Shown piece after piece: positions 40,553 through 57,558 of a stretch of DNA of 64,000 nucleotides. Under the pieces are notes generated by a model. The model was not told the origin of the DNA. It made no database searches and saw only the letters and a list, made by a program, of their open reading frames with translations. Source of the stretch: an uncultured Desulfobacter sp. (GTDB lineage Bacteria > Desulfobacterota > Desulfobacteria > Desulfobacterales > Desulfobacteraceae); contig OY762069.1 of the NCBI GenBank assembly GCA_963665095.1, positions 6,464,001 to 6,528,000 on the forward strand, read 5' to 3'. Numbering within the stretch: the stretch's first letter is position 1; each line of letters starts with the position of its first letter. The position numbers and the translations under genes were made by a program.

Positions 40553-41878
40553 ATGGCTAAGCATGAAACTCCTTTACTGGACGAGCTGGAATCCGGCCCG
40601 TGGCCTAGCTTTGTTTCTGACCTGAAACAGCAGGCAGAAGTCAGAGCCAAAAACGAAAAAGGCGTTGAATTCCAGATTCCCCAGGATTGTGTAGACGATC
40701 TTCTTGGTGTGTTGGAACTCTCTTACAAACATGGACGTACCCACTGGAAACACGGCGGCATTGTTGGTGTATTCGGCTACGGCGGCGGCGTTATCGGTCG
40801 TTACTGCGACCAGCCCAAACTGTTCCCCGGTGTTGAACATTTTCACACCATGCGTGTAAACCAGCCCTGCGGTAAATACTACAGTACTGAATACCTCAGA
40901 CAGTTGACTGATCTGTGGGACTTCAGGGGCTCCGGAGTTACCAATATGCACGGCGCCACCGGCGATATCATCCTTCTGGGTACCACTACTCCCCAGCTGG
41001 AAGAAGTGTTCTGGACACTGACCCATGACTTCAACCAGGATCTCGGCGGCTCCGGCTCCAACCTGAGAACCCCTGCTGACTGCCTTGGCCAGTCCAGATG
41101 TGAATACTCCTGCTACGACACCAGCGCTCTGTGCCATTTCCTGACCAACGAATATCAGGATGAGCTGCATCGTCCGGCATTCCCCTACAAGTTTAAATTC
41201 AAATTTGACGGCTGCCCCAACTGCTGTGTTGCTTCCATCGCACGTTCCGATATGTCCTTCATCGGCACCTGGAAAGACGACATCCGCATTGATCAGGACG
41301 CTGTTAACAAATATGTTGAAAATGATCCCGCATATCCGGCCAACGCCGGTGCCCACAAGGGTAAAGACTGGGGCCCCTTTGACATTGAAAAAGAAGTTCT
41401 GGGACTGTGCCCCACAAAATGCATGAAGTTTGAAAACAAAACGTTGACCATTGATAATGCCAACTGCACCCGCTGCATGCACTGTATCAACGTAATGCCC
41501 CGCGCATTGAAGATTGGTAAAGAAACCGGTCTGTCCATTCTCTGCGGTGCCAAGGCGCCTATCCTTGACGGTGCCCAGATGGGTTCTCTGCTGGTTCCCT
41601 TCATCGAAGTTAATGCCGACAACGATTACGAAGAAATTACCGAAATCATTGAAAACGTTTGGGACTGGTGGATGGAAGAAGGCAAAAACCGCGAACGTCT
41701 TGGTGAGCTGATTATGCGCCAGGGATTCCAGAAACTTCTGGAAGTAACCGGCATTGAAGCAATGCCCCAGCATGTTGCCTACCCGAGAACCAATCCCTAC
41801 ATCTTCTGGAAAGAAGACGAAGTACCGGGTGGCTGGGAACGTGACGTTGAAGATTACAGAAAACATCACTTAAGATAA
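40553..41878 (+). CDS. dsrA: Dissimilatory sulfite reductase alpha subunit
   Basis: TPLLDELESGPWPSFV, THWKHGG, CLGQSRCE, KFKFDGCPNCC, CTRCMHC and PYIFW. Confidence 0.99.
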   Translation: MAKHETPLLDELESGPWPSFVSDLKQQAEVRAKNEKGVEFQIPQDCVDDLLGVLELSYKHGRTHWKHGGIVGVFGYGGGVIGRYCDQPKLFPGVEHFHTMRVNQPCGKYYSTEYLRQLTDLWDFRGSGVTNMHGATGDIILLGTTTPQLEEVFWTLTHDFNQDLGGSGSNLRTPADCLGQSRCEYSCYDTSALCHFLTNEYQDELHRPAFPYKFKFKFDGCPNCCVASIARSDMSFIGTWKDDIRIDQDAVNKYVENDPAYPANAGAHKGKDWGPFDIEKEVLGLCPTKCMKFENKTLTIDNANCTRCMHCINVMPRALKIGKETGLSILCGAKAPILDGAQMGSLLVPFIEVNADNDYEEITEIIENVWDWWMEEGKNRERLGELIMRQGFQKLLEVTGIEAMPQHVAYPRTNPYIFWKEDEVPGGWERDVEDYRKHHLR

Positions 41879-41893
41879 AAAGGGAGATATATA

Positions 41894-43042
41894 ATGGCAT
41901 TTATTTCTACCGGGTATAATCCCGCAAAACCGATGGAAAACAGAATCACCGACATCGGTCCTAAAGACTATAACGACTTTTATCCTCCTGTTATCGCAAA
42001 CAATAAAGGCAAATGGTCTCATCATGAGATCCTGGAACCCGGCGTGCTGGTTCATGTTGCCGAGTCCGGAGATGAAGTATATACCGTAAGAGTTGGCGGT
42101 TGCCGTCTGATGTCCACCACGCACATCAATGAAATTTGCGACATCGCAGATAAACATTGTGACGGGTATGTTCGTTTTACTACCCGTAACAACATTGAGT
42201 TCATGGTTGACTCCAAAGACAAAGTAGAACCGTTGAAAAACGATCTGGCTTCCAGAAAGTTCCCCGGCGGCTCCCAGAAATTCCCCATCGGCGGTACTGG
42301 TGCCGGTATCACCAACATCGTTCACACCCAGGGCTGGATTCACTGCCATACCCCGGCTACTGATGCTTCCGGTACCGTAAAGGTTACCATGGATGCCCTG
42401 TTTGACGAGTTCCAGAATATGAGACTGCCTGCTCAGCTTCGTGTTTCCATGGCATGCTGCCTGAACATGTGCGGTGCGGTTCACTGCTCTGATATCGCCA
42501 TCCTTGGTTACCACAGAAAACCGCCAATGCTTGACCATGAATACCTGGACAAGGTTTGCGAAATCCCGCTGGCCGTTGCTGCCTGCCCCACCGCAGCTAT
42601 TAAGCCTGCTAAAACCACCCTGCCTAACGGTACTGAAGTAAAATCAGTAGACGTTAAAAACGAACGCTGCATGTACTGTGGTAACTGCTACACCATGTGC
42701 CCATCCATGCCGCTGGCCGACACCGAAGGTGACGGTATCGTTCTTATGGCCGGTGGCAAGGTGTCCAACCGTATCTCCGATCCGAAATTCTCCAAGGTTG
42801 TTGTGGCCTTCCTGCCCAACGAAATGCCCCGCTGGCCGTCCATGACCGACGCCATCAAAAAGATTGTTAACGCCTACTCAAACGGCGCCAATAAATACGA
42901 GCGTCTGGGCGACTGGGCAGAGAGAATCGGATGGGAAAAATTCTTTACAGCTTGTGAACTTGACTTCACCCACCACCTGATTGACGACTTCCGTCAGCAG
43001 GCCTACATGAGCTGGCGTCAGTCCACTCAGTTTAAATTCTAG
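41894..43042 (+). CDS. dsrB: Dissimilatory sulfite reductase beta subunit
   Basis: [41 protein letters not shown] and RQSTQFKF. Confidence 0.99.
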
Positions 43043-43082
43043 TTCTAAAAGTCAGAACTTGAGTTTAATAGCAATTTAATAT

Positions 43083-43125
43083 GGGTTGAACCGGGGCAAC
43101 ATTTTGTTCTCCGGTTCATCCCTTT
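43083..43125 (+). terminator. Strong stem-loop between dsrB and dsrD
   Basis: GGGTTGAACCGGGGCAAC-ATTTT-GTTCTCCGGTTCATCCC followed by only TTT. Confidence 0.55.
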
Positions 43126-43144
43126 CAACTGAAAGGAGTCTAAC

Positions 43145-43405
43145 ATGGCAAGCGATCTTCTTAATGATAAAGAGGCTGCCCAGAAAGCAGTTGTTGACTG
43201 GTTGACAAAAAAAGCAGGCAGCAAAACCAAATTTTACATTAAAGATTTTTATAAAATTTTCCCCGATGATAAACCCCGGGAAATTAAAAAAGTCGTTAAT
43301 AAAATGGTAGAAGAGGAAATCCTTGAATTCTGGTCATCCGGATCTACCACAATGTATGGCCTTAAGGGTGCAGGCATCCAGCATGCCTCTGAGGGTGAAG
43401 CATAG
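43145..43405 (+). CDS. dsrD: Dissimilatory sulfite reductase D protein
   Basis: KTKFYIKDF...LEFWSSGSTTMYGL signature; position after dsrB. Confidence 0.97.
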   Translation: MASDLLNDKEAAQKAVVDWLTKKAGSKTKFYIKDFYKIFPDDKPREIKKVVNKMVEEEILEFWSSGSTTMYGLKGAGIQHASEGEA

Positions 43406-43423
43406 AAAGTATTTTGCTGATTC

Positions 43424-44902
43424 ATGATCGTCAGTAGGGAAAACGTCCCTGGAGTTGTCATTGCAGGACTTAAAGGGGGGTCAGGCAAGACAATAATATC
43501 CCTTGGGATAACTGCCGCGTGGACTGCTCAAAATATAACAGTGGCCCCATTTAAAAAGGGCCCTGACTATATTGATGCCGGCTGGCTTTCAAGGGCAGCC
43601 GGCCGCCCCTGTTATAATCTGGATACCTATCTTTGCACCCAGTCTGTGGTGCGCAATTCCTATTTTACTCATACCCGGTCCCGTGACATCGCCATGGTTG
43701 AAGGCAATCGCGGTTTATATGACGGCATTGATATGGATGGGACCACCTCCACCGGTGAGCTTGCCAAACTGCTTGATCTGCCGGTTGTTCTGGTTCTGGA
43801 CTGCACAAAATCCACCCGGACCATAGCTGCTGTTCTCATGGGTTGTGTTCAGTTTGATCCGGATATCCATATCGGTGGTGTTATACTGAACCGCCTGGCC
43901 GGCAAACGGCATGAAGGAAAAGTCAGGGCTAATATTGAGCGATACTGCAACATCCCGGTACTTGGTGCCTTGCCAAAGCTTAAGCAGGAAGATTTCCCCG
44001 AACGCCATATGGGGCTCGTGCCATCACAAGAACACGGGGAAGGTGACAGATCTCTTGAACGGGCCGGCCAGGTGGCGCATGATAACATTGATCTAGATGC
44101 AATTTATCGCATGGCCTTTGCCTATAAGGGGTGTGATCGGATGTCTGATGCCGGCCAGGGAGATGAAAATTCGTCGGCTTCCGAATCCTGTTTGAGTATT
44201 GATACCAAACCTATAGCCGCAGTGTTGGATCCCGGAACAAATGATCCTGTCACTATTGGTATCGTCAGGGATTCTGCATTTCAATTTTATTACCCGGACA
44301 ATATAGAGGCATTGGAATTGCTGGGGGCAAAGATCACATACATCAGCCCGCTTTCCCAGACAACCATTCCAGATGTGGATGCCATTTATATGGGAGGCGG
44401 ATTCCCCGAGACTCACGCAGCCCAGCTTTCGTCAAACACGTCTTTTCTGAGTGCATTAAAAACATTGTCCCGGAAAGGCCTTCCCATTTATGCCGAATGC
44501 GGCGGGCTGATTTTTCTGGGTGAAAGTATCTGTCTCGACCACTGTGTTTATCCAATGACAGGTATCCTTCCAATACGGTTCGGTCTATCTTCCCGCCCCC
44601 AGGGGCACGGATACACCGAAGTTGAAGTGGTCAACGACAACCCCTTTTATGAAAAGGGAGAGATATTACGGGGGCATGAATTCAGATACTCCAAGGTGCT
44701 TTCCATTGATTTTGAGAATAGCGCCATGGCTTTTAACATGGTTCGGGGCAAAGGAATCCTTGAGAAAAAAGATGGATTTTTCAGGGACATGACTTTTGGT
44801 ACCTACACTCATATTCACGCCCTTGGGTCCCTTTCCTGGGCCCCGTCTCTCATGGCCAGGGCCAGGGCCTTTAAATCTGCCCGTGCACAGGCAGATCTTT
44901 AG
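43424..44902 (+). CDS. dsrN: Cobyrinate a,c-diamide synthase homolog (siroheme amidase)
   Basis: GGSGKT, FKKGPDYID, EGNRGLYDG, PERHMGL, YAECGG, GHEFRYS and YTHIH; follows dsrABD. Confidence 0.9.
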   Translation: MIVSRENVPGVVIAGLKGGSGKTIISLGITAAWTAQNITVAPFKKGPDYIDAGWLSRAAGRPCYNLDTYLCTQSVVRNSYFTHTRSRDIAMVEGNRGLYDGIDMDGTTSTGELAKLLDLPVVLVLDCTKSTRTIAAVLMGCVQFDPDIHIGGVILNRLAGKRHEGKVRANIERYCNIPVLGALPKLKQEDFPERHMGLVPSQEHGEGDRSLERAGQVAHDNIDLDAIYRMAFAYKGCDRMSDAGQGDENSSASESCLSIDTKPIAAVLDPGTNDPVTIGIVRDSAFQFYYPDNIEALELLGAKITYISPLSQTTIPDVDAIYMGGGFPETHAAQLSSNTSFLSALKTLSRKGLPIYAECGGLIFLGESICLDHCVYPMTGILPIRFGLSSRPQGHGYTEVEVVNDNPFYEKGEILRGHEFRYSKVLSIDFENSAMAFNMVRGKGILEKKDGFFRDMTFGTYTHIHALGSLSWAPSLMARARAFKSARAQADL

Positions 44903-45359
44903 CAATCTCCTCATAAAGAAGATCTACCCAGTGTTGTGCTTTTGATTCCGTCATCTCCATTCCATCAAGAATCGACTGCCAGTTACACTCTTTTGAAATG
45001 GGGCAGGAGGAATCTATGCCCAGTATGTGGTGGTTTATAAAGTCATAGGGAAAAAGCCTGCAAATCAACGGCCGGGTCTCTAAAGGGAGCAGGCACCCCA
45101 TGGCAGAGGCCAGGCAGCATTGTTTGTCATCCGTTCTTTTCAGTACTCTGACTCGGTTTCCCTCAGACATGATCAGGGGCAGCCAGCAGGTGTCATAATC
45201 CGGTTCAATATCTGATAAAATCGGGGGCTCGTAGGTGTAAAAATCTGAATGTTTCAGAAAGCCGGAAATACGCACGATATCTCCGGAGGTAAGGTAAATC
45301 TGGTATCCCTTACAGCAAGAGTGGCCCAGACTTGCGCAGGTCGCACAAGGCGTAACCAT
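44871..45359 (-). CDS. YkgJ/FliB-like cysteine-cluster protein
   Basis: CATCASLGHSCC, CCL...GCLL...RPLICRLFP; GGAG RBS before MVTPC. Confidence 0.85.
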   Translation of the reverse strand: MVTPCATCASLGHSCCKGYQIYLTSGDIVRISGFLKHSDFYTYEPPILSDIEPDYDTCWLPLIMSEGNRVRVLKRTDDKQCCLASAMGCLLPLETRPLICRLFPYDFINHHILGIDSSCPISKECNWQSILDGMEMTESKAQHWVDLLYEEIAKDLPVHGQI

Positions 45360-45468
45360 ATAAAACTCCAAAAACAGTTAAAAGCTGCGAACCAGTCAAC
45401 GAACCGGTTCGGTTTCTTGTCGTACAAACTGCAAAATTCAACAAAAAAAAGGTTGAAATCAACATCCC

Positions 45469-45516
45469 TCGGATCCCTGATCGGACCTCTGATCAGACCA
45501 CTAACCGGATCACTAA
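45469..45516. repeat. Degenerate 12-bp tandem repeat x4
   Basis: TCGGATCCCTGA / TCGGACCTCTGA / TCAGACCACTAA / CCGGATCACTAA. Confidence 0.75.
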
Positions 45517-45534
45517 GATCCGTTGGAAAAGGGC

Positions 45535-46806
45535 TTATCCATCTTGGGGAATTAGGAAAATGCCTTGGCTGTTCGTCTTGACGGCCACCCGGGGCAGCGG
45601 CTTGATGAACTGCTGACGAAGGCTGTAAGTGTAAGCCCCTTGGGCAGGTATCATGAGAATGTCCCCTTCTTTTATATCTGAACCCAAATAGGCGAATCCC
45701 CAGACATCGTGGGGGGTGCATAGGGCGCCCAGGATATGGCATGGTTTTTCGGTCAGGCCCGGTCGCGTGAGGTTGAGTACCGGACAATAGTCGACTTCAT
45801 ACCGTTCCCAGCCGATGGTGTTGGTACCGGCATCTGTTATCACAAGATCGTGGGCTTTCTGGTCCACCACCTGGATAAGAATGTGCATGGCATCATTACA
45901 GATCCAGCGCCCGGGTTCAAAGCAGATACGGCAACGGGCAACTGGAAAGATGGCGTCCTTGATGGCCTGGGACAGTTTTTCGGCAAAAATATCAATGGAG
46001 ACGGCCGGATCTATGGTGTACTTTCCGGACAGGTCGGACAACAGCCATTCTCCCTGGTCGGGCCAGTAACCCCCGCCAATATCAATAAATTTCAGGTCGT
46101 TTAAAAAATCAGCCGGCATGGAGGCAAGAATATTGCCTAACTGCTTGATAAAAGAGACCTGTCTATCCGGGTTCAGATTCCATGAGGAATGAAACTGAAG
46201 GCCCTGGAACTCCAGGCCATCCGTGGCCTGTATCTTTTTGTAGGCGACAAGCAGATCCTGGGCGGCGATGCCGAATTTGCGCCACAACCCGTTTGGGTTG
46301 TTGTTCAGCCGAATTCCCACCCGCATGGTACTGTTCGTTCCATCAAGTATGGATGCCAGGCGATTGAGCTCGCCCAGGCTGTCCAGAAGAATCACCACCC
46401 GTTTTGGATGGTGCAGGGCAAGTTCCAGCTCCTGATCTGTTTTTCCCGGGCCACTGAATATAATGGACCGGGCACCCAGATCCAGGGCACACTTAAGTTC
46501 CATGCCGCTGGAAACGTCCAGGCCGAATCCTTGTCTTAACAGCGTTTTTGATAAATATGGCAGATTGTTGCTTTTCATGGCGTAGAAAAAGGCCGTATCC
46601 GGCAGATACTTTCGGAAGGCAGTCATGAACCGGTCTGCCTTTTGGGCAAGGACATCTGCTTCCAGAACATACAAAGGAGAACCGTATTGTTCCGCCATGT
46701 TAAGGTAAACCTCTTTATTCTGAAAATAGGGAGTAACAAAGGCTCGGACCGATTTTTCGCTGAGTTCGGAACGGCCTTCGGGAATCTGCAGGTTTTTGGT
46801 CAGCAT
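45535..46806 (-). CDS. Fold-type III PLP-dependent decarboxylase (LysA superfamily, SbnH/BtrK-like)
   Basis: YAMKSN (PLP Lys), DVSSGME, FSGPGK, KFG, IDIGGG, EPGR, GALCTPHD and GAY. Confidence 0.85.
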   Translation of the reverse strand: MLTKNLQIPEGRSELSEKSVRAFVTPYFQNKEVYLNMAEQYGSPLYVLEADVLAQKADRFMTAFRKYLPDTAFFYAMKSNNLPYLSKTLLRQGFGLDVSSGMELKCALDLGARSIIFSGPGKTDQELELALHHPKRVVILLDSLGELNRLASILDGTNSTMRVGIRLNNNPNGLWRKFGIAAQDLLVAYKKIQATDGLEFQGLQFHSSWNLNPDRQVSFIKQLGNILASMPADFLNDLKFIDIGGGYWPDQGEWLLSDLSGKYTIDPAVSIDIFAEKLSQAIKDAIFPVARCRICFEPGRWICNDAMHILIQVVDQKAHDLVITDAGTNTIGWERYEVDYCPVLNLTRPGLTEKPCHILGALCTPHDVWGFAYLGSDIKEGDILMIPAQGAYTYSLRQQFIKPLPRVAVKTNSQGIFLIPQDG

Positions 46807-48137
46807 GCCTTGTCCAGTTCCAGTTCCATTTCAATTTCAATGCGTTTTGACAATAACAGACATTCAGTTTCAAGGTAGGTGGTCCGGTCCGGTTCGATGA
46901 TCATATGGCCCAGCAGCCAGGAATCATAATCCTTGGGCGGCAGGGTGACCATATGGCCGGGCGCGTGGATCAGATGGACCTTTTTCACCCGTTTATCACC
47001 GGTCAGAGCATCTGTGTTGATCTGTTTTAAAATCCCCTCTTTACGTGCATGAATCCGGTATGCCACCCATGGCTTGTATGGCACCATTTTTTCATGTTTC
47101 CAGGGAATGCCGGCTGCCGCATCTATGGCCATACCCAGCATATCAAAGTTGCCGGCCTCCTTGAGCAGAAACGGCAGGCAGTCACCTCCGGGCCGCGGGG
47201 TCATCTCAATGAGTACAGGGGTGTTGCCCCTTATGATGAAATCCACCATACAGATTCCTGTGCGGATACCAAGAGCCCCTGCCGCCTTTGAAAGAATTTC
47301 TGCCAGGCCGTCATGGTGGTTCGGGGCCAAATCGTTATGGTTGCCCTGGTTTGCATCTGTACAAAGGGCATACCCTGAAATGGTGCCAAAAGGGCGGTTG
47401 TCCATTTTGATCTTCCGGGTTTTACGAAGTATGACCGCTTTACCATTTTCCAGAAGGAAATCGCAGCTGTACTCAGGACCCGGTATCCACTCTTCCGCCA
47501 GCATCCGGTAGGTGCCGGCATCTGTGGCTCTGAACAGCGGGTTGGCAGATCTCTCCTCAAGGCCGGTTGCGATGGTATCAAAAGCCGTGCTGCATTCCCT
47601 TCGGGTCCGGCATTTAAATACCAACTCACTGCCCGACCCGCAAAACGGTTTAAGGACCAGACCCTGGGGGGCGGTTTCCAAAAATGCTGTCACCCCGGTA
47701 ATATCCTTTACCGGTAGCGTTCGCGGGCAGGGGATCTGGTGTTCGTGCCATAACTGTTTACAAAGATATTTGTCCCGGCAGTTTTTGACCGCGGTCAGAC
47801 TTGGGTATGGCAACCCGAAGCGGGCTGCCAGTACGGAAGCTGTTTCCATGGACTCACAGTCAAAGCAGGCAATGCCGGCAAGTTCAATGCCACAGATTTT
47901 AAGATGCGTTGTCAAAGCCGTTTGCACAGCGTCAATATCTGTGATCTGGCATAATATCTCTTCCCGGTTCCCGGGGCAGGGCTCTTTGGACTTCTTGCGT
48001 ATATCGGGATCTGTCAGAAAAAGTGCCGCTCCTGGACGAGTCTGTCGAATCCAGTCAATGTAGTCGCAGGTGGTCCCTACCACAAGCACTTTTTTGTTCG
48101 GATCGGTCATATCCCTATCAAACAGCCTTACGGTCAT
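46800..48137 (-). CDS. ATP-grasp ligase (L-amino-acid-ligase type)
   Basis: CRDKY, VLKPFCGSGS, EEWIPGPEYSCD, VDF..LIEMTPRPGGD and a C-terminal LAL-like domain; GAGGA RBS. Confidence 0.85.
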   Translation of the reverse strand: MTVRLFDRDMTDPNKKVLVVGTTCDYIDWIRQTRPGAALFLTDPDIRKKSKEPCPGNREEILCQITDIDAVQTALTTHLKICGIELAGIACFDCESMETASVLAARFGLPYPSLTAVKNCRDKYLCKQLWHEHQIPCPRTLPVKDITGVTAFLETAPQGLVLKPFCGSGSELVFKCRTRRECSTAFDTIATGLEERSANPLFRATDAGTYRMLAEEWIPGPEYSCDFLLENGKAVILRKTRKIKMDNRPFGTISGYALCTDANQGNHNDLAPNHHDGLAEILSKAAGALGIRTGICMVDFIIRGNTPVLIEMTPRPGGDCLPFLLKEAGNFDMLGMAIDAAAGIPWKHEKMVPYKPWVAYRIHARKEGILKQINTDALTGDKRVKKVHLIHAPGHMVTLPPKDYDSWLLGHMIIEPDRTTYLETECLLLSKRIEIEMELELDKAC

Positions 48138-49083
48138 AGTGTTCCTCTTGATGTGCAGCCGGAAAGGCTTTTGTGTGGATCTCATATGAGGGTCGGGGGC
48201 TCAGGCGGAACCGCTGCTTCCAGTTGAAACTGCCGCACAGAAAGTCCACAGACTCCAGCCGGTTATGACAGGCCCACTCCAGGTGGTGGAGATTAATTAC
48301 TTTGGCAATACCGGGAAAATCCGCATGTGTACCGCCGGCTACAACCATATAGGTGTTGTTGAACACCACGCCCATGTCAACTGCCGCCACTGTCCCATCC
48401 ACGATGGCGGTGGTGATCCGCAGCATGCCCATGCCCTTGAAAAATGCGGCCAGTTGTTCAAATGATCTGTAAAACCGGGCATCGCTGAAATAGGAGTCTG
48501 ATGTAAAGGCTGTCATGTTCAGGCGGAACATCTCGGTGAGATCAGGATGGTGGTTATACCGCCAGGTCAGATTCTGGGTTTCGATCTTTTTTACGTCGGC
48601 TTTCAGTTTTTTCCTGGTTTTTCCAGGGAAGGTCAGCCAGAAGTTGTCCATGGAAAAATCATAGAGACGCGGGTAGAAAAGGTATCCGGTTTCATCCAGG
48701 GCAGCCTGTTTCACTGTTTCCAGGATCCGGGATTCCCGCATATAACGCAGATGTAAAGGCCCGGGAACTGACTCACACAGGGCGTTGAATACATCGGGGT
48801 CATCTGCAATGATCCGGTTTTGTTCCAGCCAGGTTTTGCCTTTCCATGTCTCCCCGGGAAAAAATACATATTCACCGGTCTCTTCGTTAAGGCTAAGGGG
48901 CAGAAACCCCACAACTTTGCCAGCCCGTTCTGCGATGTGGAAACTTAAGGGCCGTTTAAAGGTGTTATGAAAACACTCTCTTACCGCCCAAAGATCAAAT
49001 ATGCAGTCCACAGGCCAGTATTGTTCAAATGCCTTGCGGCACAGTTCCGGATCTTCGATGGTGGTAATCTTCATTGCCGCCAC
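48118..49083 (-). CDS. GNAT-fold protein (FemAB/Acetyltransf_6-like)
   Basis: Two GNAT-like halves; VGFLPL, GKTRKKLK, HLEWACHNRLESVDFLCGSFNWKQRF; start directly follows the speD-like stop. Confidence 0.78.
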   Translation of the reverse strand: MAAMKITTIEDPELCRKAFEQYWPVDCIFDLWAVRECFHNTFKRPLSFHIAERAGKVVGFLPLSLNEETGEYVFFPGETWKGKTWLEQNRIIADDPDVFNALCESVPGPLHLRYMRESRILETVKQAALDETGYLFYPRLYDFSMDNFWLTFPGKTRKKLKADVKKIETQNLTWRYNHHPDLTEMFRLNMTAFTSDSYFSDARFYRSFEQLAAFFKGMGMLRITTAIVDGTVAAVDMGVVFNNTYMVVAGGTHADFPGIAKVINLHHLEWACHNRLESVDFLCGSFNWKQRFRLSPRPSYEIHTKAFPAAHQEEHYDRKAV

Positions 49084-49473
49084 CTAATGCCGAAGGGTTA
49101 CGTTGATGTGGCAGCTTTTTCCGCCAAAATAGTTTTGTGCAAATTCACGCACCACTTCAGGATCATATACCTTGCAGGAGAACACATCCAGGTAGGTGGT
49201 ATTGCTCTGGTTGGCAAAATGAGCGGAGATCAGGGATGTCTCAATGAGCTGAACCATTGAAAATCCGGCTACTTTCTCATCTTCGCCAAAGTGGACCACC
49301 TGGGTCTCACCAAACCGTTTCATTTCGATCAGGTCACACAGTTCCACAACAAATTTTTTGATTAATTCCGCATCCCTGATTTTTTCAGGATCACAGTCAT
49401 AAATGTCAATGGCAGAGGCAATGCCCCAAACTTCAGGTGCGGTGTCAAGTTGGATTACGTTTGCAGCGGTCAT
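49084..49473 (-). CDS. Pyruvoyl-dependent S-adenosylmethionine decarboxylase-like proenzyme (class 1b size)
   Basis: IET-S80-LISA-H85 and LDVFS-C100, the same Ser/His/Cys spacing as bacterial SpeD; AAGGAG RBS. Confidence 0.85.
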   Translation of the reverse strand: MTAANVIQLDTAPEVWGIASAIDIYDCDPEKIRDAELIKKFVVELCDLIEMKRFGETQVVHFGEDEKVAGFSMVQLIETSLISAHFANQSNTTYLDVFSCKVYDPEVVREFAQNYFGGKSCHINVTLRH

Positions 49474-49501
49474 GTAGATTCTCCTTTAAAAGCGGTGCGC
49501 C

Positions 49502-49663
49502 CTACCATTTATCTCTGGTGTCGGTGGGTCGCTTGGGTTTTTTGTTCATTTTTTTTCGGCGTTTCTGGTCTTCCTGCTGGTCCTCCCAGTCGTACTCTTC
49601 GTCATAGCTCTCTTTGAACCGTGGGCTTTTACTCTTGTTACGGCCGATTTTTTCCCTATTCAT
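49502..49663 (-). CDS. Unannotated 53-aa highly charged peptide, first gene of the sigma54 operon
   Basis: MNREKIGRNKSKSPRFKESYDEEYDWEDQQEDQKRRKKMNKKPKRPTDTRDKW*; AAAGGAAAGGA RBS; stop 28 bp before the speD-like ATG. Confidence 0.75.
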   Translation of the reverse strand: MNREKIGRNKSKSPRFKESYDEEYDWEDQQEDQKRRKKMNKKPKRPTDTRDKW

Positions 49664-49734
49664 GGGTCCTTTCCTTTTTGGTTGTTTACCAGCGGTATTG
49701 CCGGAAGGTGTGGATTCAACTCATGACCCCTCTT

Positions 49735-49750
49735 AGCAACCAGCGTGCCA
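49735..49750 (-). promoter_or_regulatory. Sigma54 (-24/-12) promoter
   Basis: Minus strand TGGCAC-GCTGG-TTGCT is a full consensus match, divergent from a bEBP gene. Confidence 0.88.
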
Positions 49751-49934
49751 AGACATAAAAAAAAATTTTCCCCGCAAATACAGGTTGTTCCAAAAATAAA
49801 AGATATATTTGTAGACGGAATACTGAATTTAATAGCAATATTTTACTTAAAACTAAATTATCGGAAAAATTATACTTGAATGGGTCGTTCAATTCCTGTA
49901 TTAAGATCAATCAGTCTCCATATTTAATAGGAAG

Positions 49935-49947
49935 AATCAAAATATTG
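49935..49947 (+). promoter_or_regulatory. Possible IHF site
   Basis: AATCAA-AATA-TTG matches WATCAA-N4-TTR, but lies in an AT-rich region and further upstream than usual. Confidence 0.3.
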
Positions 49948-50024
49948 AAGTCTGATATCTATATATTATGTGTATTTCAACAAACAAATAATCAGAAATA
50001 TTTTACTGAAAATGGAGTATCCCC

Positions 50025-51446
50025 ATGCTGATTCGACTGGCATGCGCCATTAAAGAGAAAAATATCCTTACTCAGCTTTCAAACAGAATGGAAGAGCAGG
50101 ACGTCCAGCTCCAGTTTTTTAAGCCAACAACGCTTTCGTGGCAGGCTCTTGCCAGAAGTTGTGCGGATGTCTTTATTGTCAGCAGTTCTGCAGTACCAAA
50201 ACCTGTGGAGTCCAGCATCTCTTTGCTCAATGAACTGCCGGAGTCGCCCATGACCATTGTTTTGCATAACCGGGAGTCATCTGAAGAGCATGCCAACCTG
50301 CTGGCGGCCGGTGTTGATGTGGTGCTTTATTCCGGTATCTCAACGGACAGCCTTTTAGAGGCCATTGACACAACGCTGGAGTCCCGGCGGCAGTTCTACT
50401 ATTCCGAACGCTTTGACCGGCGGGGACGGTTTCTGCCCCGGCTTAACGATTTTACCTCCAACAGCCGTCAGATGCAGGTGTTTCTTGATGAGACCCGGCA
50501 GGTGGTATCCAGTGATGCCACAATCCTGCTGTTAGGCGAAACAGGTGTGGGCAAGGAGCATCTGTCCAAAGCCATACATACGGACAGCCACCGGTCCACA
50601 GGTCCCTTTATCGCCATCAACATGGCCGCCATTCCGGAACAGCTCATGGAAAGCGAACTGTTCGGCCATGAGCAGGGTGCGTTTACCGGAGCGGTGCGTT
50701 CCCGGCGCGGAGCCTTTGAAATGGCCCACGGCGGCACCATTTTTCTGGATGAAATAGGGGAGATGCCCTTGCAGATGCAGACCAAACTGCTCAGGGTACT
50801 CCAGGAACTTGAATTTACGCCTGTGGGCGGTGAGAAACCGGTGTGGGTGGATGTCAGGGTCATTGCAGCCACCAATAAAGATCTTGAAAAGGAGATTGAA
50901 AAAGGCACCTTCCGAAAAGATCTTTACTACCGGTTAGGGGTGATCACGCTTACACTTCCGCCCCTGAGAAAAAGAAAGGAGGATATTCCCTCCCTGGCCA
51001 ACCATTTTCTGACCATGAACCAGCAGAAATTCGGCCGGAATCTCAAACGCTTTTCTCCCCAGGCCATGGAGGCCCTGTGCCGGTACGAGTGGCCGGGAAA
51101 CATCCGGGAACTCATGAATGTGATTGAGCGGGCCGTGCTGCTCTGCAAATCAGATACCGTGGGGCTGACCGAACTGCCGACGGTTTTTCATCACCCCCTG
51201 CCCGCAACAGGCAACGGGCATGTGTCCGGCTTTCCTTTCCCCCAAAAGTGGGAGTCCATGACTCTGCCTGAGGTCAAGGAGGCGGTGTATGACCGGGTGG
51301 AGGCCCAGTACCTTGCCATGGTCCTGAAAAAAACAAAAGGCCGGATCAATGAAACCGCCCAGATTGCCGGAATCCATCCCAGGGGGCTTTATGCCAAAAT
51401 GAAAAAACTGGGACTGGACAAGGCTGATTTTAAACTTCAAGGATAA
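50025..51446 (+). CDS. Sigma54-dependent enhancer-binding protein with degenerate receiver domain
   Basis: GETGVGKE, ESELFGHEQGAFTGA, FLDEIG, QTKLLRVLQE, FRKDLYYRL and WPGNIREL; C-terminal Fis HTH. Confidence 0.93.
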   Translation: MLIRLACAIKEKNILTQLSNRMEEQDVQLQFFKPTTLSWQALARSCADVFIVSSSAVPKPVESSISLLNELPESPMTIVLHNRESSEEHANLLAAGVDVVLYSGISTDSLLEAIDTTLESRRQFYYSERFDRRGRFLPRLNDFTSNSRQMQVFLDETRQVVSSDATILLLGETGVGKEHLSKAIHTDSHRSTGPFIAINMAAIPEQLMESELFGHEQGAFTGAVRSRRGAFEMAHGGTIFLDEIGEMPLQMQTKLLRVLQELEFTPVGGEKPVWVDVRVIAATNKDLEKEIEKGTFRKDLYYRLGVITLTLPPLRKRKEDIPSLANHFLTMNQQKFGRNLKRFSPQAMEALCRYEWPGNIRELMNVIERAVLLCKSDTVGLTELPTVFHHPLPATGNGHVSGFPFPQKWESMTLPEVKEAVYDRVEAQYLAMVLKKTKGRINETAQIAGIHPRGLYAKMKKLGLDKADFKLQG

Positions 51447-51457
51447 CCACTGTTAAT

Positions 51458-52048
51458 ATGTATTCTCCATTTCATTATCAGATTTCAGAGTATGACTGCG
51501 TTCCTGCGGCGCTTACCAATGCAGTTTCTTTCCTTTTTCACAGAAAGGAGATTCCTCCCATGGTGATTCAGCACATTTATCTTTATTGCCTGGACACCGT
51601 GGGCCGGAATTGCCGGTTCGGCATCGGCGGCACCAGTAAGTATGCGGTTCGCCTGGTGGGCAACTGGCTGGACTCTTACAAAATGAAATCCTTTGCAGTG
51701 AAAACCCAATTTCTGGAGAAGGCGGCTGTGAATATGGCGCCGGGCGGGCAGATTGAAACCTGCCTTGAAGAGGGCGGTGTGGTGCTTTGCAATATTCTTT
51801 TAACCCCCCGGGACGAACACTACCTTATGATAACGGCCATGGATGATGAGTGGGTATATTGTTTTGATTCATACCGCCGGCAGTCCATCCGCGGTATGAA
51901 AGGTATGGCCCGGGTCATTGAACCTGAAGACGGGCGGGCCGCCAACCTGAAAATCAGGCGGGACTGGATTGGCCAGGATCAGGTGACGCGCTTTTGTCTT
52001 GGCCCCATGGATATGCGGGAAAGCCTTCTTGTCTGGCGGATATCCTGA
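51458..52048 (+). CDS. Standalone C39-like (papain-fold) cysteine peptidase
   Basis: Q8-x5-C14 (YQISEYDCVP), EHYLMI (His) and YCFDSY (Asp); no signal peptide; 11 bp after the bEBP stop. Confidence 0.7.
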   Translation: MYSPFHYQISEYDCVPAALTNAVSFLFHRKEIPPMVIQHIYLYCLDTVGRNCRFGIGGTSKYAVRLVGNWLDSYKMKSFAVKTQFLEKAAVNMAPGGQIETCLEEGGVVLCNILLTPRDEHYLMITAMDDEWVYCFDSYRRQSIRGMKGMARVIEPEDGRAANLKIRRDWIGQDQVTRFCLGPMDMRESLLVWRIS

Positions 52049-53066: not shown

Positions 53067-55616
53067 TCAGTTTTTGTATTTTGAATTCAGATAATCCAGG
53101 ACCTGTTGGGGGGAGGTCAGATTGATCACTGCCTGGGCCATCTCTCTGGCTTCCGACATGGACACATTGCCCACCGTTTTTTTTACATCAGGGATGGCAG
53201 GGGCGTTCATGCTCAATTCGTCCAGGCCCATGCCAACCAGGATCGGGGTGACCAGGGGATTGCCGGCAAGCTCCCCGCACATACCCACCCAGATTCCTGC
53301 CTGACGGGCAGCGGCAGCTGTCTGGGACACCATGCGCAGCACCGCAGGGTGCAGGGCATTGGTGAGGTGGCTTACCTTGCGGTTGCCGCGGTCCGCACCC
53401 ATAACATACTGGGTGAGATCATTGGAGCCGATGCTGAAAAAGTCAGCCTCTTCAGCCAGCTGGTCTGCAACGGCCACAGCTGACGGCACCTCAATCATGA
53501 GTCCCACTTCAATAGTGTCATCAAAGGGGATTTCAGCGTCCGTCAGCTCCTGTTTCACTTCATTGAGCATGGCTTTGGCCTTGCAGAATTCCGGCTGGCT
53601 GCTGATCATGGGGAACATGATTTTGATATTGTGCCCGTGGCTGGCTTTTAGTATGGCCCGCAGCTGGGGTTTGAAAACCTCGGGATGTTCAAGGCAGAAC
53701 CGGATACCCCGCAGGCCCAGAAAGGGGTTCTCCTCCGGTGCCATGTCCAGATAAGGGATAAATTTGTCTCCGCCCACATCCAGGGTACGGATAACCAGGG
53801 GCTGTTTCCCCATGGCTGCGGCGACTTCGGCATAGGCTGCCAGCTGTTCCTCTTCTGTGGGTGCCTGGGACCGGCCCAGAAACAGGAATTCGGTTCTGAA
53901 AAGCCCCACGCCGTCAGCGCCATAATCCAGAGCCACCCCGGTATCAAAGGGGCCGCCGATATTGGCTGCAACCTCAATGGTCTTCGCGTCTTTCCCCTTT
54001 GTCACTGCCGGTTGCAGGGCCTGGGCTTTGAGCGCATTCTGCCGGGATATCCACCGGTCACGCCGGGACTGTAATTCAGTCAGTTGTACCTGGGTGGGCC
54101 GGGGCCAGACCTGGCCGTTGGTGCCGTCCAGCGCAACCACAGTGCCTTCAGGTACGTCGCCTAATCCCTGGGGCAGGCCTACCACGGCGGGAATACCTAA
54201 GGCTTTGGCCACAATGGCGCTGTGGGAGGTGGCGCCGCCTTGTTCGGTGCAGAACGCCAGAACTTTTTCAGGATTCAGGCGGGCCGTATCTGATGGGGTC
54301 AGCTCGAATGCAAATACAATTGAGGGGTGCAAGAAATCCAGGCCGGGAAGCGCCTCCCCCAGCAAATGCCGCAACACCCGTCTGCCCACATCAATGACGT
54401 CTGCCGCACGTTCCCGAAGATATGGGTCTTCCAGTCTGCGGTATTCATCTGCCATGGCCTCAATGGCGTTGCTCCAGGCAGATTCTGCGTTTATTTTCCT
54501 GTTAATCACCTGATCTTTTACCCCATCCAGCAGGGCCGGATCATCCAGAAACATTTGCTGGGCATCAAAAATGGCGGCCTGGTCAGCACCGATCTGCCGG
54601 GCAGCCTGATTTTTCAAAAGATCAAGGTCCTGTTTGGCCTGGTCAAGGCTGCCCTGGAATTTTTCCCATTCCACATCACCATTTTCTATTAAAGTTGCAG
54701 TAACTTCCGGCATCCGGGAAGTGTAATGGGCCACAGGGCCGATGGCAATGCCGGGTGAGGCTGGAATGCCGGTTAAAATACCATCGGCATTCTTTTGGGG
54801 GGCAGACGCTGGTGGGGCCTCGGATGATTGGGGGATGTCTGAATTGTCCTCCTTATCACCAAATTTATCTTCAGCCAGAACCTGGATGGCATCCAGTGCG
54901 GCCCGGGCATCGGGTCCCGTTGCCTTGACAACAATGCTGTCATTGTGGCCTGCGCCCAGGGTGGCTACCTGGTTGATGCTTTTTGCATTGGCGGTTTTTT
55001 CGCCTTTAGCCACTGTGATATTGGATTGAAACCGGCCGGCGGTTTTAACGAAATTGGCTGCAGGCCTGGCATGCAGGCCCATACGGTTGAGAATGGTAAT
55101 GGTGATCTGAACTGTGTCGCCAGGCGGCTCAGCCGGGCAGGGTGAGTCTGCATCAGGGTTGGAACCCGGCAGGCGTGTCATATCTGATCCGGGTGGCACC
55201 CCCATGGCCGGTGACAGCTGATCCATTTTGGCGGAAAGTGCTCCCATGGCTTCATGCATCACCTGCTCAAGGGTGCTGCCGATGGACGCTTGAACTGCTG
55301 CGGCCACAGCACCTTCCACAATGGGGGCGGCACATAGTTTTACCTTTTCCTGCTGTGCCGGCTCAAGAAATTCCAGTGCCATCTCTGCACTGAGAAGTGC
55401 CGAACCCAGGTCCATGAGCACCAGTACCCCGTCTTCACTGAAAACAGATTCAATTGCGGCCTGAACTTTAAAGGCATCCGTGCCAATGGGATTTTCCGGA
55501 TCATCTATGCCGCCGGCAACGGCAATCTGACCCTGTCCCCGGGTCATTTGTTCTGCCAGCTCTTTTACGCCCTGGGCCAGGGCGGCACTATGGGAAACTA
55601 TGACAAGACCAACCAT
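53067..55616 (-). CDS. dhaM: DhaM(EIIA)-HPr-Enzyme I multiphosphoryl transfer protein
   Basis: MVGLVIVSHS (EIIA His), DLGSA; HPr GLHARPA and NAKSI; EI TSHSAI, GLFRTEF, RTLDVGGDK, SIGSNDLTQY and CGE. Confidence 0.92.
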   Translation of the reverse strand: MVGLVIVSHSAALAQGVKELAEQMTRGQGQIAVAGGIDDPENPIGTDAFKVQAAIESVFSEDGVLVLMDLGSALLSAEMALEFLEPAQQEKVKLCAAPIVEGAVAAAVQASIGSTLEQVMHEAMGALSAKMDQLSPAMGVPPGSDMTRLPGSNPDADSPCPAEPPGDTVQITITILNRMGLHARPAANFVKTAGRFQSNITVAKGEKTANAKSINQVATLGAGHNDSIVVKATGPDARAALDAIQVLAEDKFGDKEDNSDIPQSSEAPPASAPQKNADGILTGIPASPGIAIGPVAHYTSRMPEVTATLIENGDVEWEKFQGSLDQAKQDLDLLKNQAARQIGADQAAIFDAQQMFLDDPALLDGVKDQVINRKINAESAWSNAIEAMADEYRRLEDPYLRERAADVIDVGRRVLRHLLGEALPGLDFLHPSIVFAFELTPSDTARLNPEKVLAFCTEQGGATSHSAIVAKALGIPAVVGLPQGLGDVPEGTVVALDGTNGQVWPRPTQVQLTELQSRRDRWISRQNALKAQALQPAVTKGKDAKTIEVAANIGGPFDTGVALDYGADGVGLFRTEFLFLGRSQAPTEEEQLAAYAEVAAAMGKQPLVIRTLDVGGDKFIPYLDMAPEENPFLGLRGIRFCLEHPEVFKPQLRAILKASHGHNIKIMFPMISSQPEFCKAKAMLNEVKQELTDAEIPFDDTIEVGLMIEVPSAVAVADQLAEEADFFSIGSNDLTQYVMGADRGNRKVSHLTNALHPAVLRMVSQTAAAARQAGIWVGMCGELAGNPLVTPILVGMGLDELSMNAPAIPDVKKTVGNVSMSEAREMAQAVINLTSPQQVLDYLNSKYKN

Positions 55617-55741
55617 AATTCTTTTTTCCTTTGTCAGCCCTGATTGCCGTCAACCTACCATTGGCTGCTGTGAACCAAACAGTATAAAAAGCCTTTACCC
55701 GGTTCCGGCGTTTGTCGTAAGGGCCCGGGTCGGTCTGTCAA

Positions 55742-56374
55742 TCAGGCCTCAAGCGTTTCTAAAAACGTTTTAAGCAATAGGCAGGAGGAGGTGGCACCCG
55801 GGTCCTGATGCCCGATGCTGCGTTCTCCCAGGTAGCTCGCCCGGCCTTTTTTGGCCTGAAGGGGAATGGTGGCTGAAAGCCCCGTTTCGGCAGCTGCTAC
55901 CCCGGCCTTCATCAGCGCCAGAGTATCGCTGCCTTTGGATAACTCTGTCTGAATGGTTTCCAGAACCGGAGCCCAGACATCATACATGGTTTTGTCTCCC
56001 ACCTGTGGACGGCCACGCTGGATAATCCCGTCAACACCGCCCTTGAACATGGCGTACAGATCATTGTCATCCAGCTCTTCCTTCCCGGGAGCAGCTGCTG
56101 CTGCACGCATGAAAAAGGTGCCGTAAAGCGGACCGCTGGCACCGCCAACACTTGAAATCAATGTCATGCCGGTCTGTTTTAAGATATTGCCGATGTCTGA
56201 ATCGGCCAGGCTGGGCAGCTTTTCCTGAACTTTTTTAAACCCCCGGGCCATGTTGAACCCGTGGTCTGCATCACCGATTTCAGCATCCAGCTGGGTGAGG
56301 TAGTCTTTGTTTTCCTGGATGACATCTGCTGATTTCTGCAGCCATGTGATGATTTGCTCTTTGCTGACACTCAT
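55742..56374 (-). CDS. dhaL: Dihydroxyacetone kinase ADP-binding subunit
   Basis: LTQLDAEIGDADHG, GGASGPLYG, GDKTM and KGRASYLGERSIGHQDPGA. Confidence 0.96.
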   Translation of the reverse strand: MSVSKEQIITWLQKSADVIQENKDYLTQLDAEIGDADHGFNMARGFKKVQEKLPSLADSDIGNILKQTGMTLISSVGGASGPLYGTFFMRAAAAAPGKEELDDNDLYAMFKGGVDGIIQRGRPQVGDKTMYDVWAPVLETIQTELSKGSDTLALMKAGVAAAETGLSATIPLQAKKGRASYLGERSIGHQDPGATSSCLLLKTFLETLEA

Positions 56375-56490
56375 AGTTGCGCTCCGTAGAATATTAATTA
56401 GGGATGGTGGTACGGGTGCTATTATATCACCATGCACCAGCATCCCCAATCCTTATAAGGCATTAATTGTATCTAAACGCCGTATCGGTT

Positions 56491-57558
56491 TTATACGCCC
56501 CACCGAAGCCCCGGGGTGTTGACTGGTGCATCCCAGAATTTAAGGATCTCCTCGTCAGTCTTGAGCAGGGTAATGGAACAGCCCTGCATTTCCAGGGATG
56601 TAATATAAGGGCCGATCAGGTTGCGCACAATCTTGATGCCTTTGGCATCACATACCTCCACAAGCTTGCTGTAAACCGCGTAGAGCTCGGACAGAGGCGT
56701 TCCGCCCATGCTGTTGACAAAGGCAATCACTTCATCTCCTTTGGCAAAGGGCTTATCCGTAAGTGTTTTTTCTTCCCAGTCACCTTTCTGGGCATCCCAT
56801 TCACGCACAGTGCGGGTGTATGCTTCATCATCAATGATGGACAGGGCCATCTGTTCGGTGATCTCATCCACGGTTTTCATCTTGGTTCGTTCTGTACCCG
56901 GTTCTCCATGGATACCAATGCCCATTTCGATTTCATCCTCGGGCAGGTCAAAGGTGGGCTTCCCTGCTGCCGGTACTGTGCAGGAGGTCAGTGCCACACC
57001 CATGGAGCGGCCGTACTGGGAAACTTTCCGGGCAAGGTCAGCGCACTGTTCCAGGTCGTAGCCGGCTTCAGCAGCCGCGCCTACAATTTTTTCCACCAGT
57101 ACGGTGGTGCCCACGCCGCGGCGTCCGGCCGTGTAGAGACTGTCTTTTACCGCCACATCATCATCCACCAGGATGTTCTGCACTTTGATGCCGTCGGCAT
57201 GCACCATTTCTGCGGCAGTTTCAAAGTTCATGACGTCACCGGTATAGTTTTTCACCAGGAAGAGAACCCCTGCGTCAGAGGCAACTGCTTTGGCGCATTC
57301 GTACATCTGATCCGGTGTGGGGGAGGTAAAGACTTCGCCAGGGCAGGCACCATCCAGCATGCCCATGCCAACGAAGCCACCGTGCATGGGTTCATGCCCG
57401 GACCCGCCGCCGGAAATCAGTGCCACCTTTTTATTCGGAGCATCCGCACGGTATACAAAATGCGGATCAATTTTAACCGTGATTTCGGGATGGGCCTTGG
57501 CCACGCCTGCCAGTTGTTCTTTTACAACGTCGTCCACTGCATTAATGAGTTTTTTCAT
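56491..57558 (-). CDS. dhaK: Dihydroxyacetone kinase DhaK subunit
   Basis: [32 protein letters not shown] and TSLEM. Confidence 0.96.

Follow-up and report, generated by a model that had tools for sequence, protein, structure and literature searches.

Butirosin biosynthesis pairs an ATP-grasp ligase, BtrJ, with BtrK, a decarboxylase of the alanine-racemase fold. BtrK acts on carrier-bound glutamate and a ligate-then-decarboxylate logic also underlies the FigA/FigC (FslA/FslC) route to rhizoferrin and the enzyme SbnH (PMC7857480), while in the phevamine hsv operon the ATP-grasp enzyme HsvC attaches an amino acid to a polyamine without a nonribosomal peptide synthetase (PMC6187163). Here, an operon is described from a 64,000-nucleotide stretch of an uncultured Desulfobacter sp. 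genome (contig OY762069.1, positions 6,464,001 to 6,528,000; the whole stretch is referred to as the window). It resembles FigA/FigC, BtrJ/BtrK and HsvC in its working and is a member of none of these systems, and only one of its genes, speDC, belongs to a known family. On balance, sequence comparison and a predicted structure make it probable that the enzymes produce putrescine from ornithine and couple it with amino acids, which would yield a small putrescine-amino acid amide.

Gene order and conservation of the operon

A preliminary description of the window listed eight open reading frames (ORFs), all of which are present at the positions given there. Together with the promoter they form the following features.

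49735..49750, minus strand: sigma54 -24/-12 promoter motif, TGGCAC-N5-TTGCT (sequence match; recurs upstream in 89/105 related loci)
49502..49663, minus strand: 53-aa charged microprotein, a real gene and optional member (dN/dS in 13 orthologues; family in 54/115 loci)
49084..49473, minus strand: SpeDC, predicted pyruvoyl-dependent L-ornithine decarboxylase; frequent, dispensable (PF02675, diagnostic residues; full length in 85/115 loci)
48118..49083, minus strand: double-GNAT FemX/Sbb17-like transferase, predicted to depend on aminoacyl-tRNA; core (PF13480, fold matches; 115/115 loci)
46800..48137 (longest ORF from 48185), minus strand: ATP-grasp enzyme of the L-amino-acid-ligase type; core (PF13535/PF02655, profile matches; 115 loci)
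45535..46806, minus strand: pyridoxal 5'-phosphate (PLP) decarboxylase of the alanine-racemase fold, FigC/SbnH/BtrK kind; core (PF02784/PF00278; K78, C363-T-P-H366; 114/115 loci)
50025..51446, plus strand: dedicated sigma54 enhancer-binding protein (bEBP) with an atypical receiver-like N-terminal domain (PF00158; divergent orthologue in 91/115 loci)
51458..52048, plus strand: C39-like papain-fold cysteine hydrolase or transferase; accessory (Atlas, invariant residues; 20/115 loci)
44871..45371, minus strand: YkgJ/CxxCxxCC-like gene; a neighbour, not part of the system (PF03692, weak and below cut-off; 0/115 loci)

The promoter noticed in the preliminary description is present on the minus strand (49750-49735) and is the only strict sigma54 match in the 64-kb window, as opposed to 23 such matches in the 6.9-Mb genome. 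Among 105 untruncated related loci, 89 have a -24/-12 site 5' of their first operon gene, a count which excludes five duplicates, one locus without the transferase and seven truncated loci. The junctions are likewise as first described: the transferase gene begins right after the speDC stop (49084/49083; 0-bp gap), the ligase and transferase genes overlap by 20 bp if the ligase is read from ATG 48137 (the 445-aa form P0001), and the ligase and decarboxylase genes overlap by 7 bp. The domain calls listed above also stand, the PF03692 match of the YkgJ-like gene being a weak one. All operon genes are single-copy in the genome, the exceptions being a distant SpeD fusion and other bEBPs, and the named homologues are Desulfobacter proteins with 62-65% identity, which points to a Desulfobacter-like sulfate reducer as the host.

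Conservation was followed in 129 distinct loci which were picked by similarity to the ATP-grasp ligase and include many kin (nine duplicates were dropped). The counts below refer to the 115 loci whose ligase is flanked by 2.3 kb or more of upstream and 3 kb or more of downstream sequence, 14 short-flank loci having been set aside. The proposed co-occurrence of the enzymes is borne out by the joint presence of transferase (115 loci), ligase (115) and decarboxylase (114) in 114 of the 115 loci, with the core gene order kept in 114. They are often accompanied by a full-length speD-like gene (85) and an orthologous divergent bEBP (91), in agreement with the suggested sigma54-controlled unit, while a C39-like gene of the window type is found at 20 loci and a YkgJ gene at none. 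Transferase-ligase and ligase-decarboxylase fusions occur among the homologues, and one of these includes a further ATP-grasp domain. The operon of genus g10 comes in two halves, one with bEBP, promoter, speDC and transferase and the other with peptide, ligase and decarboxylase; in three genomes with a split operon speDC stays linked to the transferase and the ligase to the decarboxylase, which was counted in favor of the putrescine-amide reading.

The ligase occurs in 28 of 61 relatives, 73 of 121 genomes of the family (~60%), 20 of 401 genomes of the phylum and 30 of 151 genomes of another order. It was further recognized in 427 of 484 GTDB pattern matches, and the titles among the best 80 of these 427, which were fetched, include Nitrospirota, Planctomycetota, Verrucomicrobiota and Krumholzibacteria. 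Degenerating copies also occur (L168, L169, L171, L163), with a truncated ligase, an orphan speDC with bEBP, fragmented genes and a frameshifted decarboxylase. No published description of the gene set was found in the literature searched, which included few subscription papers; the earlier remark that no named pathway carries this gene set is in keeping with that literature.

SpeDC, the core enzymes and a predicted putrescine amide

The speD-like gene, first labeled as resembling S-adenosylmethionine decarboxylase (AdoMetDC), is strongly indicated to be speDC, encoding a pyruvoyl ornithine decarboxylase (ODC) of predicted activity, which would therefore yield putrescine and not decarboxylated S-adenosylmethionine. 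Gln, Thr, Phe and Tyr are diagnostic of AdoMetDC homologues that decarboxylate ornithine, and the corresponding positions were set from the text and Fig. S5 of the paper in question (PMC10407285). The window protein carries Q75, T79, F86 and Y94 next to the processing residues S80, H85 and C100, which correspond to S63/H68/C83 of the Thermotoga maritima enzyme, S80 also aligning with S229 of a validated fusion; these residues are present in 75 of 75 orthologues. Compared with the validated Desulfotignum ODC domain, 78 of 114 positions are identical in a gapless alignment (68%, counted by eye from Fig. S5 of PMC10407285), and a tool comparison with the intact fused domain of a relative likewise gave 78 of 114. 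The gene contexts given in the available part of that paper are speD/speE, casdh/casdc and hss, as opposed to an operon with a Fem-type transferase, a ligase and a second decarboxylase (PMC10407285). The SpeDC residues speak against a bona fide AdoMetDC (SpeD), as does the location of the genome's true SpeD elsewhere, next to speE; that protein is a fusion in which the second domain no longer has its pyruvoyl Ser. A search of PDB with the SpeDC sequence returned no meaningful match.

No further ornithine or arginine decarboxylase was found in the window's genome. Standalone SpeDC is present in 56 of the 73 ligase-bearing genomes of the family (hand count from tables), and an unlinked PLP Lys/Orn decarboxylase in 16 of the other 17, as opposed to 2 of the 56 SpeDC genomes and none of 48 ligase-free genomes. 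This complementarity supports the ODC assignment; as proof that the core enzymes use putrescine it was downgraded, since it is confounded by spermidine supply. The window's genome retains a 38-residue, 92% identical remnant of the PLP decarboxylase which replaces SpeDC in relatives (G000 C1:585233-585346), suggesting that it has lost that gene. It also holds an aguA/aguB pair (C1:6432371-6434324), while no arginine decarboxylase was found there. Four speDC-less loci of one clade adjoin aguA/aguB, three of them also a polyamine-type ABC transporter.

The GNAT gene had been compared with those of microviridin clusters. Its predicted model (pLDDT 92) is instead closest in fold to FemX (4ii9; Z 17.9, root-mean-square deviation (rmsd) 4.4, 276 aligned residues) and to the aminoacyl-tRNA-dependent synthase Sbb17, so identified by its PDB title (9wqx; Z 17.6, rmsd 4.1, 263 aligned), both double-GNAT proteins, followed by Staphylococcus aureus FemX and FemA and then by MprF-type enzymes and L-PGS. 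The nine best matches (Z 13.7-17.9) are aminoacyl-tRNA transferases except for one uncharacterised protein, and tandem GNATs using acetyl-CoA score lower (Z at most 13.2). The protein is therefore probably a Fem-type transferase dependent on aminoacyl-tRNA. The natural-product members of this group (DhpH-C, DhpK, PacB, VlmA and Orf11) share the double-GNAT fold, and a basic tRNA-binding helix and a catalytic Lys in an aromatic-Lys pair are described for FemX (K305) and DhpH-C (K329; PMC12945691). The window's transferase has K155 and K158 in helix 154-168, where the second lobe begins, and the pair W288-K289, conserved in at least 90% of 57 sequences, a putative equivalence to FemX and DhpH-C that was judged by motif position. 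It differs in its low identity (12-14%), and the same review mentions neither putrescine nor a decarboxylase (PMC12945691). A profile of the transferase found no meaningful match among PDB sequences.

The ATP-grasp enzyme is of the L-amino-acid-ligase type along its full length, which keeps the ATP-grasp family of the preliminary description and refines its class. In a profile search of PDB these ligases lead by a wide margin, with 4dim (E 3e-32) and 3vot (E 3e-31) first, then 4wd3 and BacD, and no graspetide synthetase of the MvdC/MdnC type is found among the best 60 of 79 matches; the LAL_C2 match is weak and below or near the cut-off. At P0162, P0257 and L183, a second ATP-grasp domain resembling L-amino-acid ligases lies N-terminal to the operon-type ligase and may mark loci where it stands in for the tRNA-type transferase. 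Ligases of genus g2 (L176; G483, G492, G500 and G512) contain an insertion of ~30-90 residues.

The PLP enzyme is closest to FigC, SbnH, diaminopimelate decarboxylase (DAPDC) and BtrK, of which SbnH and BtrK had been proposed at first, and its best structural relative by sequence is 7kh2. ODC, arginine decarboxylase (ADC) and DAPDC carry an Asp after the catalytic Cys which binds the side-chain amine of the substrate, and FigC lacks it and uses H357 (PMC7857480). In the window's protein, which carries K78, the corresponding stretch is C363-T-P-H366; Thr is the residue next to the Cys in all 102 orthologues, and 101 of the 102 also have the His at the third position after it. Due to the Thr in place of Asp and the FigC-like His, the substrate is likely an acylated amino acid and not a free basic one. 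Membership of the LysA, ODC or ADC families was rejected because no acidic residue follows the catalytic Cys (150 bits against a LysA cut-off of 298), and membership of FigC/FslC because of a score of 102 bits against a cut-off of 500 and of the lack of an NRPS-independent siderophore (NIS) synthetase among the recurring neighbours.

These features place the operon next to the systems named at the outset. The rhizoferrin route and SbnH share the loss of the Asp, the same His and the order of ligation and decarboxylation (PMC7857480); here, however, identity is low, amide formation would involve an ATP-grasp enzyme and a Fem-type transferase, and neither NIS synthetase, exporter nor siderophore receptor recurs. 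BtrI/BtrJ/BtrK offer the same combination of ATP-grasp enzyme and alanine-racemase-fold decarboxylase, an LCTP loop in BtrK and a small partner protein, which is often nearby in the present loci as well, whereas no acyl-carrier protein is found among the recurring neighbours, aminoglycoside genes are absent, and the small proteins are optional and unrelated to BtrI. The hsv operon likewise links an amino acid and a polyamine by ATP-grasp and has two such enzymes and an amidinotransferase (PMC6187163), as opposed to one ATP-grasp enzyme, a tRNA-type transferase and two decarboxylases here.

In the proposed route, SpeDC would convert ornithine to putrescine, a step strongly indicated by family membership and for which an unlinked PLP ornithine decarboxylase could substitute. 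Judging from its fold, the FemX-like transferase would shift an amino acid from aminoacyl-tRNA to an amine, most likely putrescine. The ligase may then activate the carboxylate of a second amino acid, in the simplest case the side chain of Glu or Asp, and add it via an amide, and the PLP enzyme would strip the remaining alpha-carboxyl to leave a 4-aminobutyryl or beta-alanyl cap, like BtrJ/BtrK on their carrier. The order of these last three steps and the amino acids used are left variable in the proposal, and a FigA/FigC-like variant in which ornithine is acylated first and decarboxylated later would fit equally well. The divergent bEBP likely turns the operon on upon a signal other than phosphorylation, and the microprotein would be an optional co-expressed helper and not an obligatory substrate.

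Several points weigh against this route. The evidence consists of gene content, conservation, motifs and fold, from which all chemistry is inferred, product and activity being predicted. L-amino-acid ligases normally activate the alpha-carboxyl and are ill-suited to the side-chain activation proposed here, and the Fem-type enzymes among the fold matches also act on peptidoglycan precursors and lipids. Eight of nine operon-negative genomes checked retain an intact SpeDC domain in the fusion of the spermidine operon, and this domain is degraded in most genomes with a PLP ODC, so that the complementarity described above may come down to each cell having one working ODC. Of five speDC-less genomes outside the family, two have a PLP ODC, two only aguA/aguB beside the operon and one (G699) neither with the queries used. 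The small charged protein present in 67 of 115 loci is left unexplained. Finally, because of the choice of loci by ligase similarity and the many kin among them, the counts hold for this sample and do not amount to independent tests.

Small partner proteins and competing explanations

The 53-aa peptide consists of a basic, an acidic/aromatic and again a basic block and ends with Trp; it has no Pfam match. Its dN of ~0.075 at a dS above 1 or saturated (13 orthologues) identifies the ORF as a real gene under purifying selection, and the idea of a recurring charged peptide has likewise held up, members of the family lying upstream in 54 of 115 loci with only Met1 conserved across 32 aligned sequences. 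A small charged gene recognized by hidden Markov model (HMM) on the operon strand within ~3 kb is found in 67 of 115 loci, either the peptide (54), a treble-clef protein (8) or a LysW-like protein (5), never two types together. The LysW-like partner, always upstream, has a zinc ribbon (PF21344, above cut-off) and an acidic tail without the EDWGE motif (ribbon and lack of EDWGE as in L048, L050 and L051), and the treble-clef partner has a basic tail and lies directly up- or downstream of the operon. The adjacent LysW-like gene is the only such gene in three of three genomes and the treble-clef gene the only copy in four of four; as sole genes of their kind in seven of seven genomes, these partners leave a carrier or substrate role some, albeit low, probability.

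Conversely, no small partner was recovered by HMM in 48 of 115 loci, two of which (L066 and L130) have a different acidic ORF, the promoter lies at most 191 nt from the first enzyme in 26 loci, and the peptide profile found nothing in five of five genomes lacking the peptide in cis, while it found five of five controls, all close kin of alignment members. An obligatory role of the peptide as precursor of a ribosomally synthesised and post-translationally modified peptide (RiPP) is therefore not supported. The preliminary description had offered two options, a RiPP or carrier peptide and another acceptor, of which the second, in the form of a small molecule, is the better reading; a carrier or substrate role of the small proteins keeps a low probability.

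The C39-like gene had been taken for the processing enzyme of the peptide. Q8, C14, H121 and D137 are invariant in seven sequences of this protein and Atlas supports the call, which has no match in Pfam or NCBIfam. Of 59 loci with the peptide, 19 have a C39-type gene of one of two families, as do 13 of 46 loci without it, and GG or GA occurs in 4 of 56 peptides, so that a role as leader peptidase was rejected. The second C39-like family (PF13529/PF03412) has members close to the operon at 12 loci (L035, L057, L069, L103, L104, L113, L114, L116, L120, L133, L136 and L137).

Graspetides, including microviridins, and LysW-LysX systems also combine a small acidic peptide with ATP-grasp, GNAT-fold and peptidase-like genes, and LysW-like ribbons occur at five loci here. 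However, the present ligase groups with L-amino-acid ligases and not with RimK/LysX, the peptide is optional and lacks a conserved core, and the ribbon partners lack EDWGE. A graspetide or microviridin is disfavored for want of an obligatory precursor with conserved leader and core, given the 48 loci without a partner and the conservation of Met1 alone. The window peptide, with neither zinc ribbon nor EDWGE, is no LysW amino-group carrier. A genome-level correlation with LysW (12 of 15 genomes with a small LysW-like match carry the ligase) was dropped as spurious because the unlinked matches fetched turned out to be canonical genes of the EDWGE type that have operons of their own. LysW genes of this canonical kind with an EEDWGE end (L207-L217) are found in several genomes from the order of G371 (Desulfobacterota), most of them preceding genes which we take to be partners of the lysX/argC/argB type.

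One competing explanation makes the small charged protein itself the carrier or substrate: the ligase would activate Asp or Glu in its acidic-aromatic tract, the transferase and the decarboxylase would build a putrescine-containing chain there, and the C39-like enzyme would release or reverse it. The disordered peptide, the LysW-like ribbon and the treble-clef protein would then be three unrelated small folds recruited to one slot in different anaerobic lineages, in a new carrier-protein or post-translational modification system. Purifying selection on the peptide, its retention where speDC is deleted (L022, L023, L025 and L027), the single partner type per locus and the uniqueness of the alternative partners argue for this, as do the split operons, in which the peptide accompanies the ligase-decarboxylase half in seven of seven loci and is missing from three of three speDC-transferase halves, and the use of carrier-bound glutamate by BtrK (PMC7857480). 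The split, however, is a single event and may have arisen by loss of an internal speDC-transferase block (compare the related intact loci L190 and L198), whose removal would leave the peptide behind for reasons of geometry. Among the split loci, L163 has a decarboxylase gene with a frameshift, and the partner types are confounded with lineage. Together with the loci without a detected partner, the genomes in which the peptide profile found nothing, the short promoter distances, the lack of conservation beyond Met1, the missing EDWGE of the adjacent LysW-like proteins, the unlinked LysW genes which in that order are canonical and part of lysW-type biosynthetic operons, and C39-type genes which do not follow the peptide, these points render the carrier or substrate explanation improbable.

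Less probable still is an acceptor among the precursors of the cell envelope (peptidoglycan stem, lipid or glycan), decorated with amino acids and putrescine by the Fem-type enzyme and the ligase. The ranking of FemX, FemA, MprF and L-PGS among the folds is consistent with it, as are weak matches of the transferase to the PEP-CTERM FemAB family and of the PLP enzyme to the exosortase-associated decarboxylase family, both of which lie far below cut-off. Yet Sbb17, a small-molecule enzyme, is on par with FemX, the neighbour families present in at least three loci include no glycosyltransferase, flippase, Mur or membrane gene, and the operon has a patchy distribution inside one family (73 of 121) and is decaying in L168, L169 and L171. 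Ordinary polyamine and lysine housekeeping by SpeD and LysA with unrelated neighbours is very improbable. SpeDC, as the only ODC found in the genome, probably also feeds spermidine synthesis, and in one clade the operon adjoins a speD-speE operon, but the genome encodes both a LysA-type protein and a speD-speE operon apart from it, and the sub-threshold LysA score, the invariant Thr after the catalytic Cys and the core order kept in 114 of 115 loci all speak against it. The putrescine-amide reading is accordingly preferred over these explanations.

Regulator, neighbouring genes and biological meaning

The bEBP has GAFTGA in 85 of 87 orthologues and a Ser (S53) at the inferred phospho-Asp position in 78 of 87, and is unlikely to be a response regulator that is phosphorylated. 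At some loci its place upstream is taken by a TetR gene. Very AT-rich DNA separates the sigma54 site from the start of the bEBP gene (49760-50020), where upstream activator and integration host factor (IHF) sites would be expected.

YkgJ, assigned to the operon in the preliminary description, lies beside it only here; an orthologue in G035 is ~4.6 Mb away from that genome's operon, and promoter and terminator scans bearing on co-transcription of ykgJ gave matches at chance level. Its end is overlapped by 32 bp by a convergent region (40553-44902, plus strand) which we take to be that of dissimilatory sulfite reductase, with dsrA, dsrB and dsrD, and whose last gene matches CobB. On the other side, 53067-57558 (minus strand) holds three genes which presumably form a PTS-dependent dihydroxyacetone kinase operon, including one for an 849-aa multidomain phosphotransfer protein. 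Among related loci, 16 carry a DksA/TraR-type gene no more than ~9 kb from the operon (L022, L023, L025-L027, L031, L032, L035, L053, L055, L065, L071, L072, L075, L126 and L127; directly upstream in L053 and L055), and in several distant genomes it adjoins a cluster in which D-Ala-D-Ala-ligase-like genes are combined with a GNAT-deacetylase fusion (L043, L044, L053 and L238).

The operon, for which the literature searched held no description, is present in ~60% of the sampled genomes of the family and in records labeled as several other anaerobic phyla. The union of a validated enzyme class, SpeDC, with the core trio leads to the prediction of a polyamine-amino acid conjugate in sulfate reducers. 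If true, this would add a tRNA-dependent step to polyamine chemistry, and if the small proteins were carriers or substrates, the operon would represent a new protein-templated pathway.

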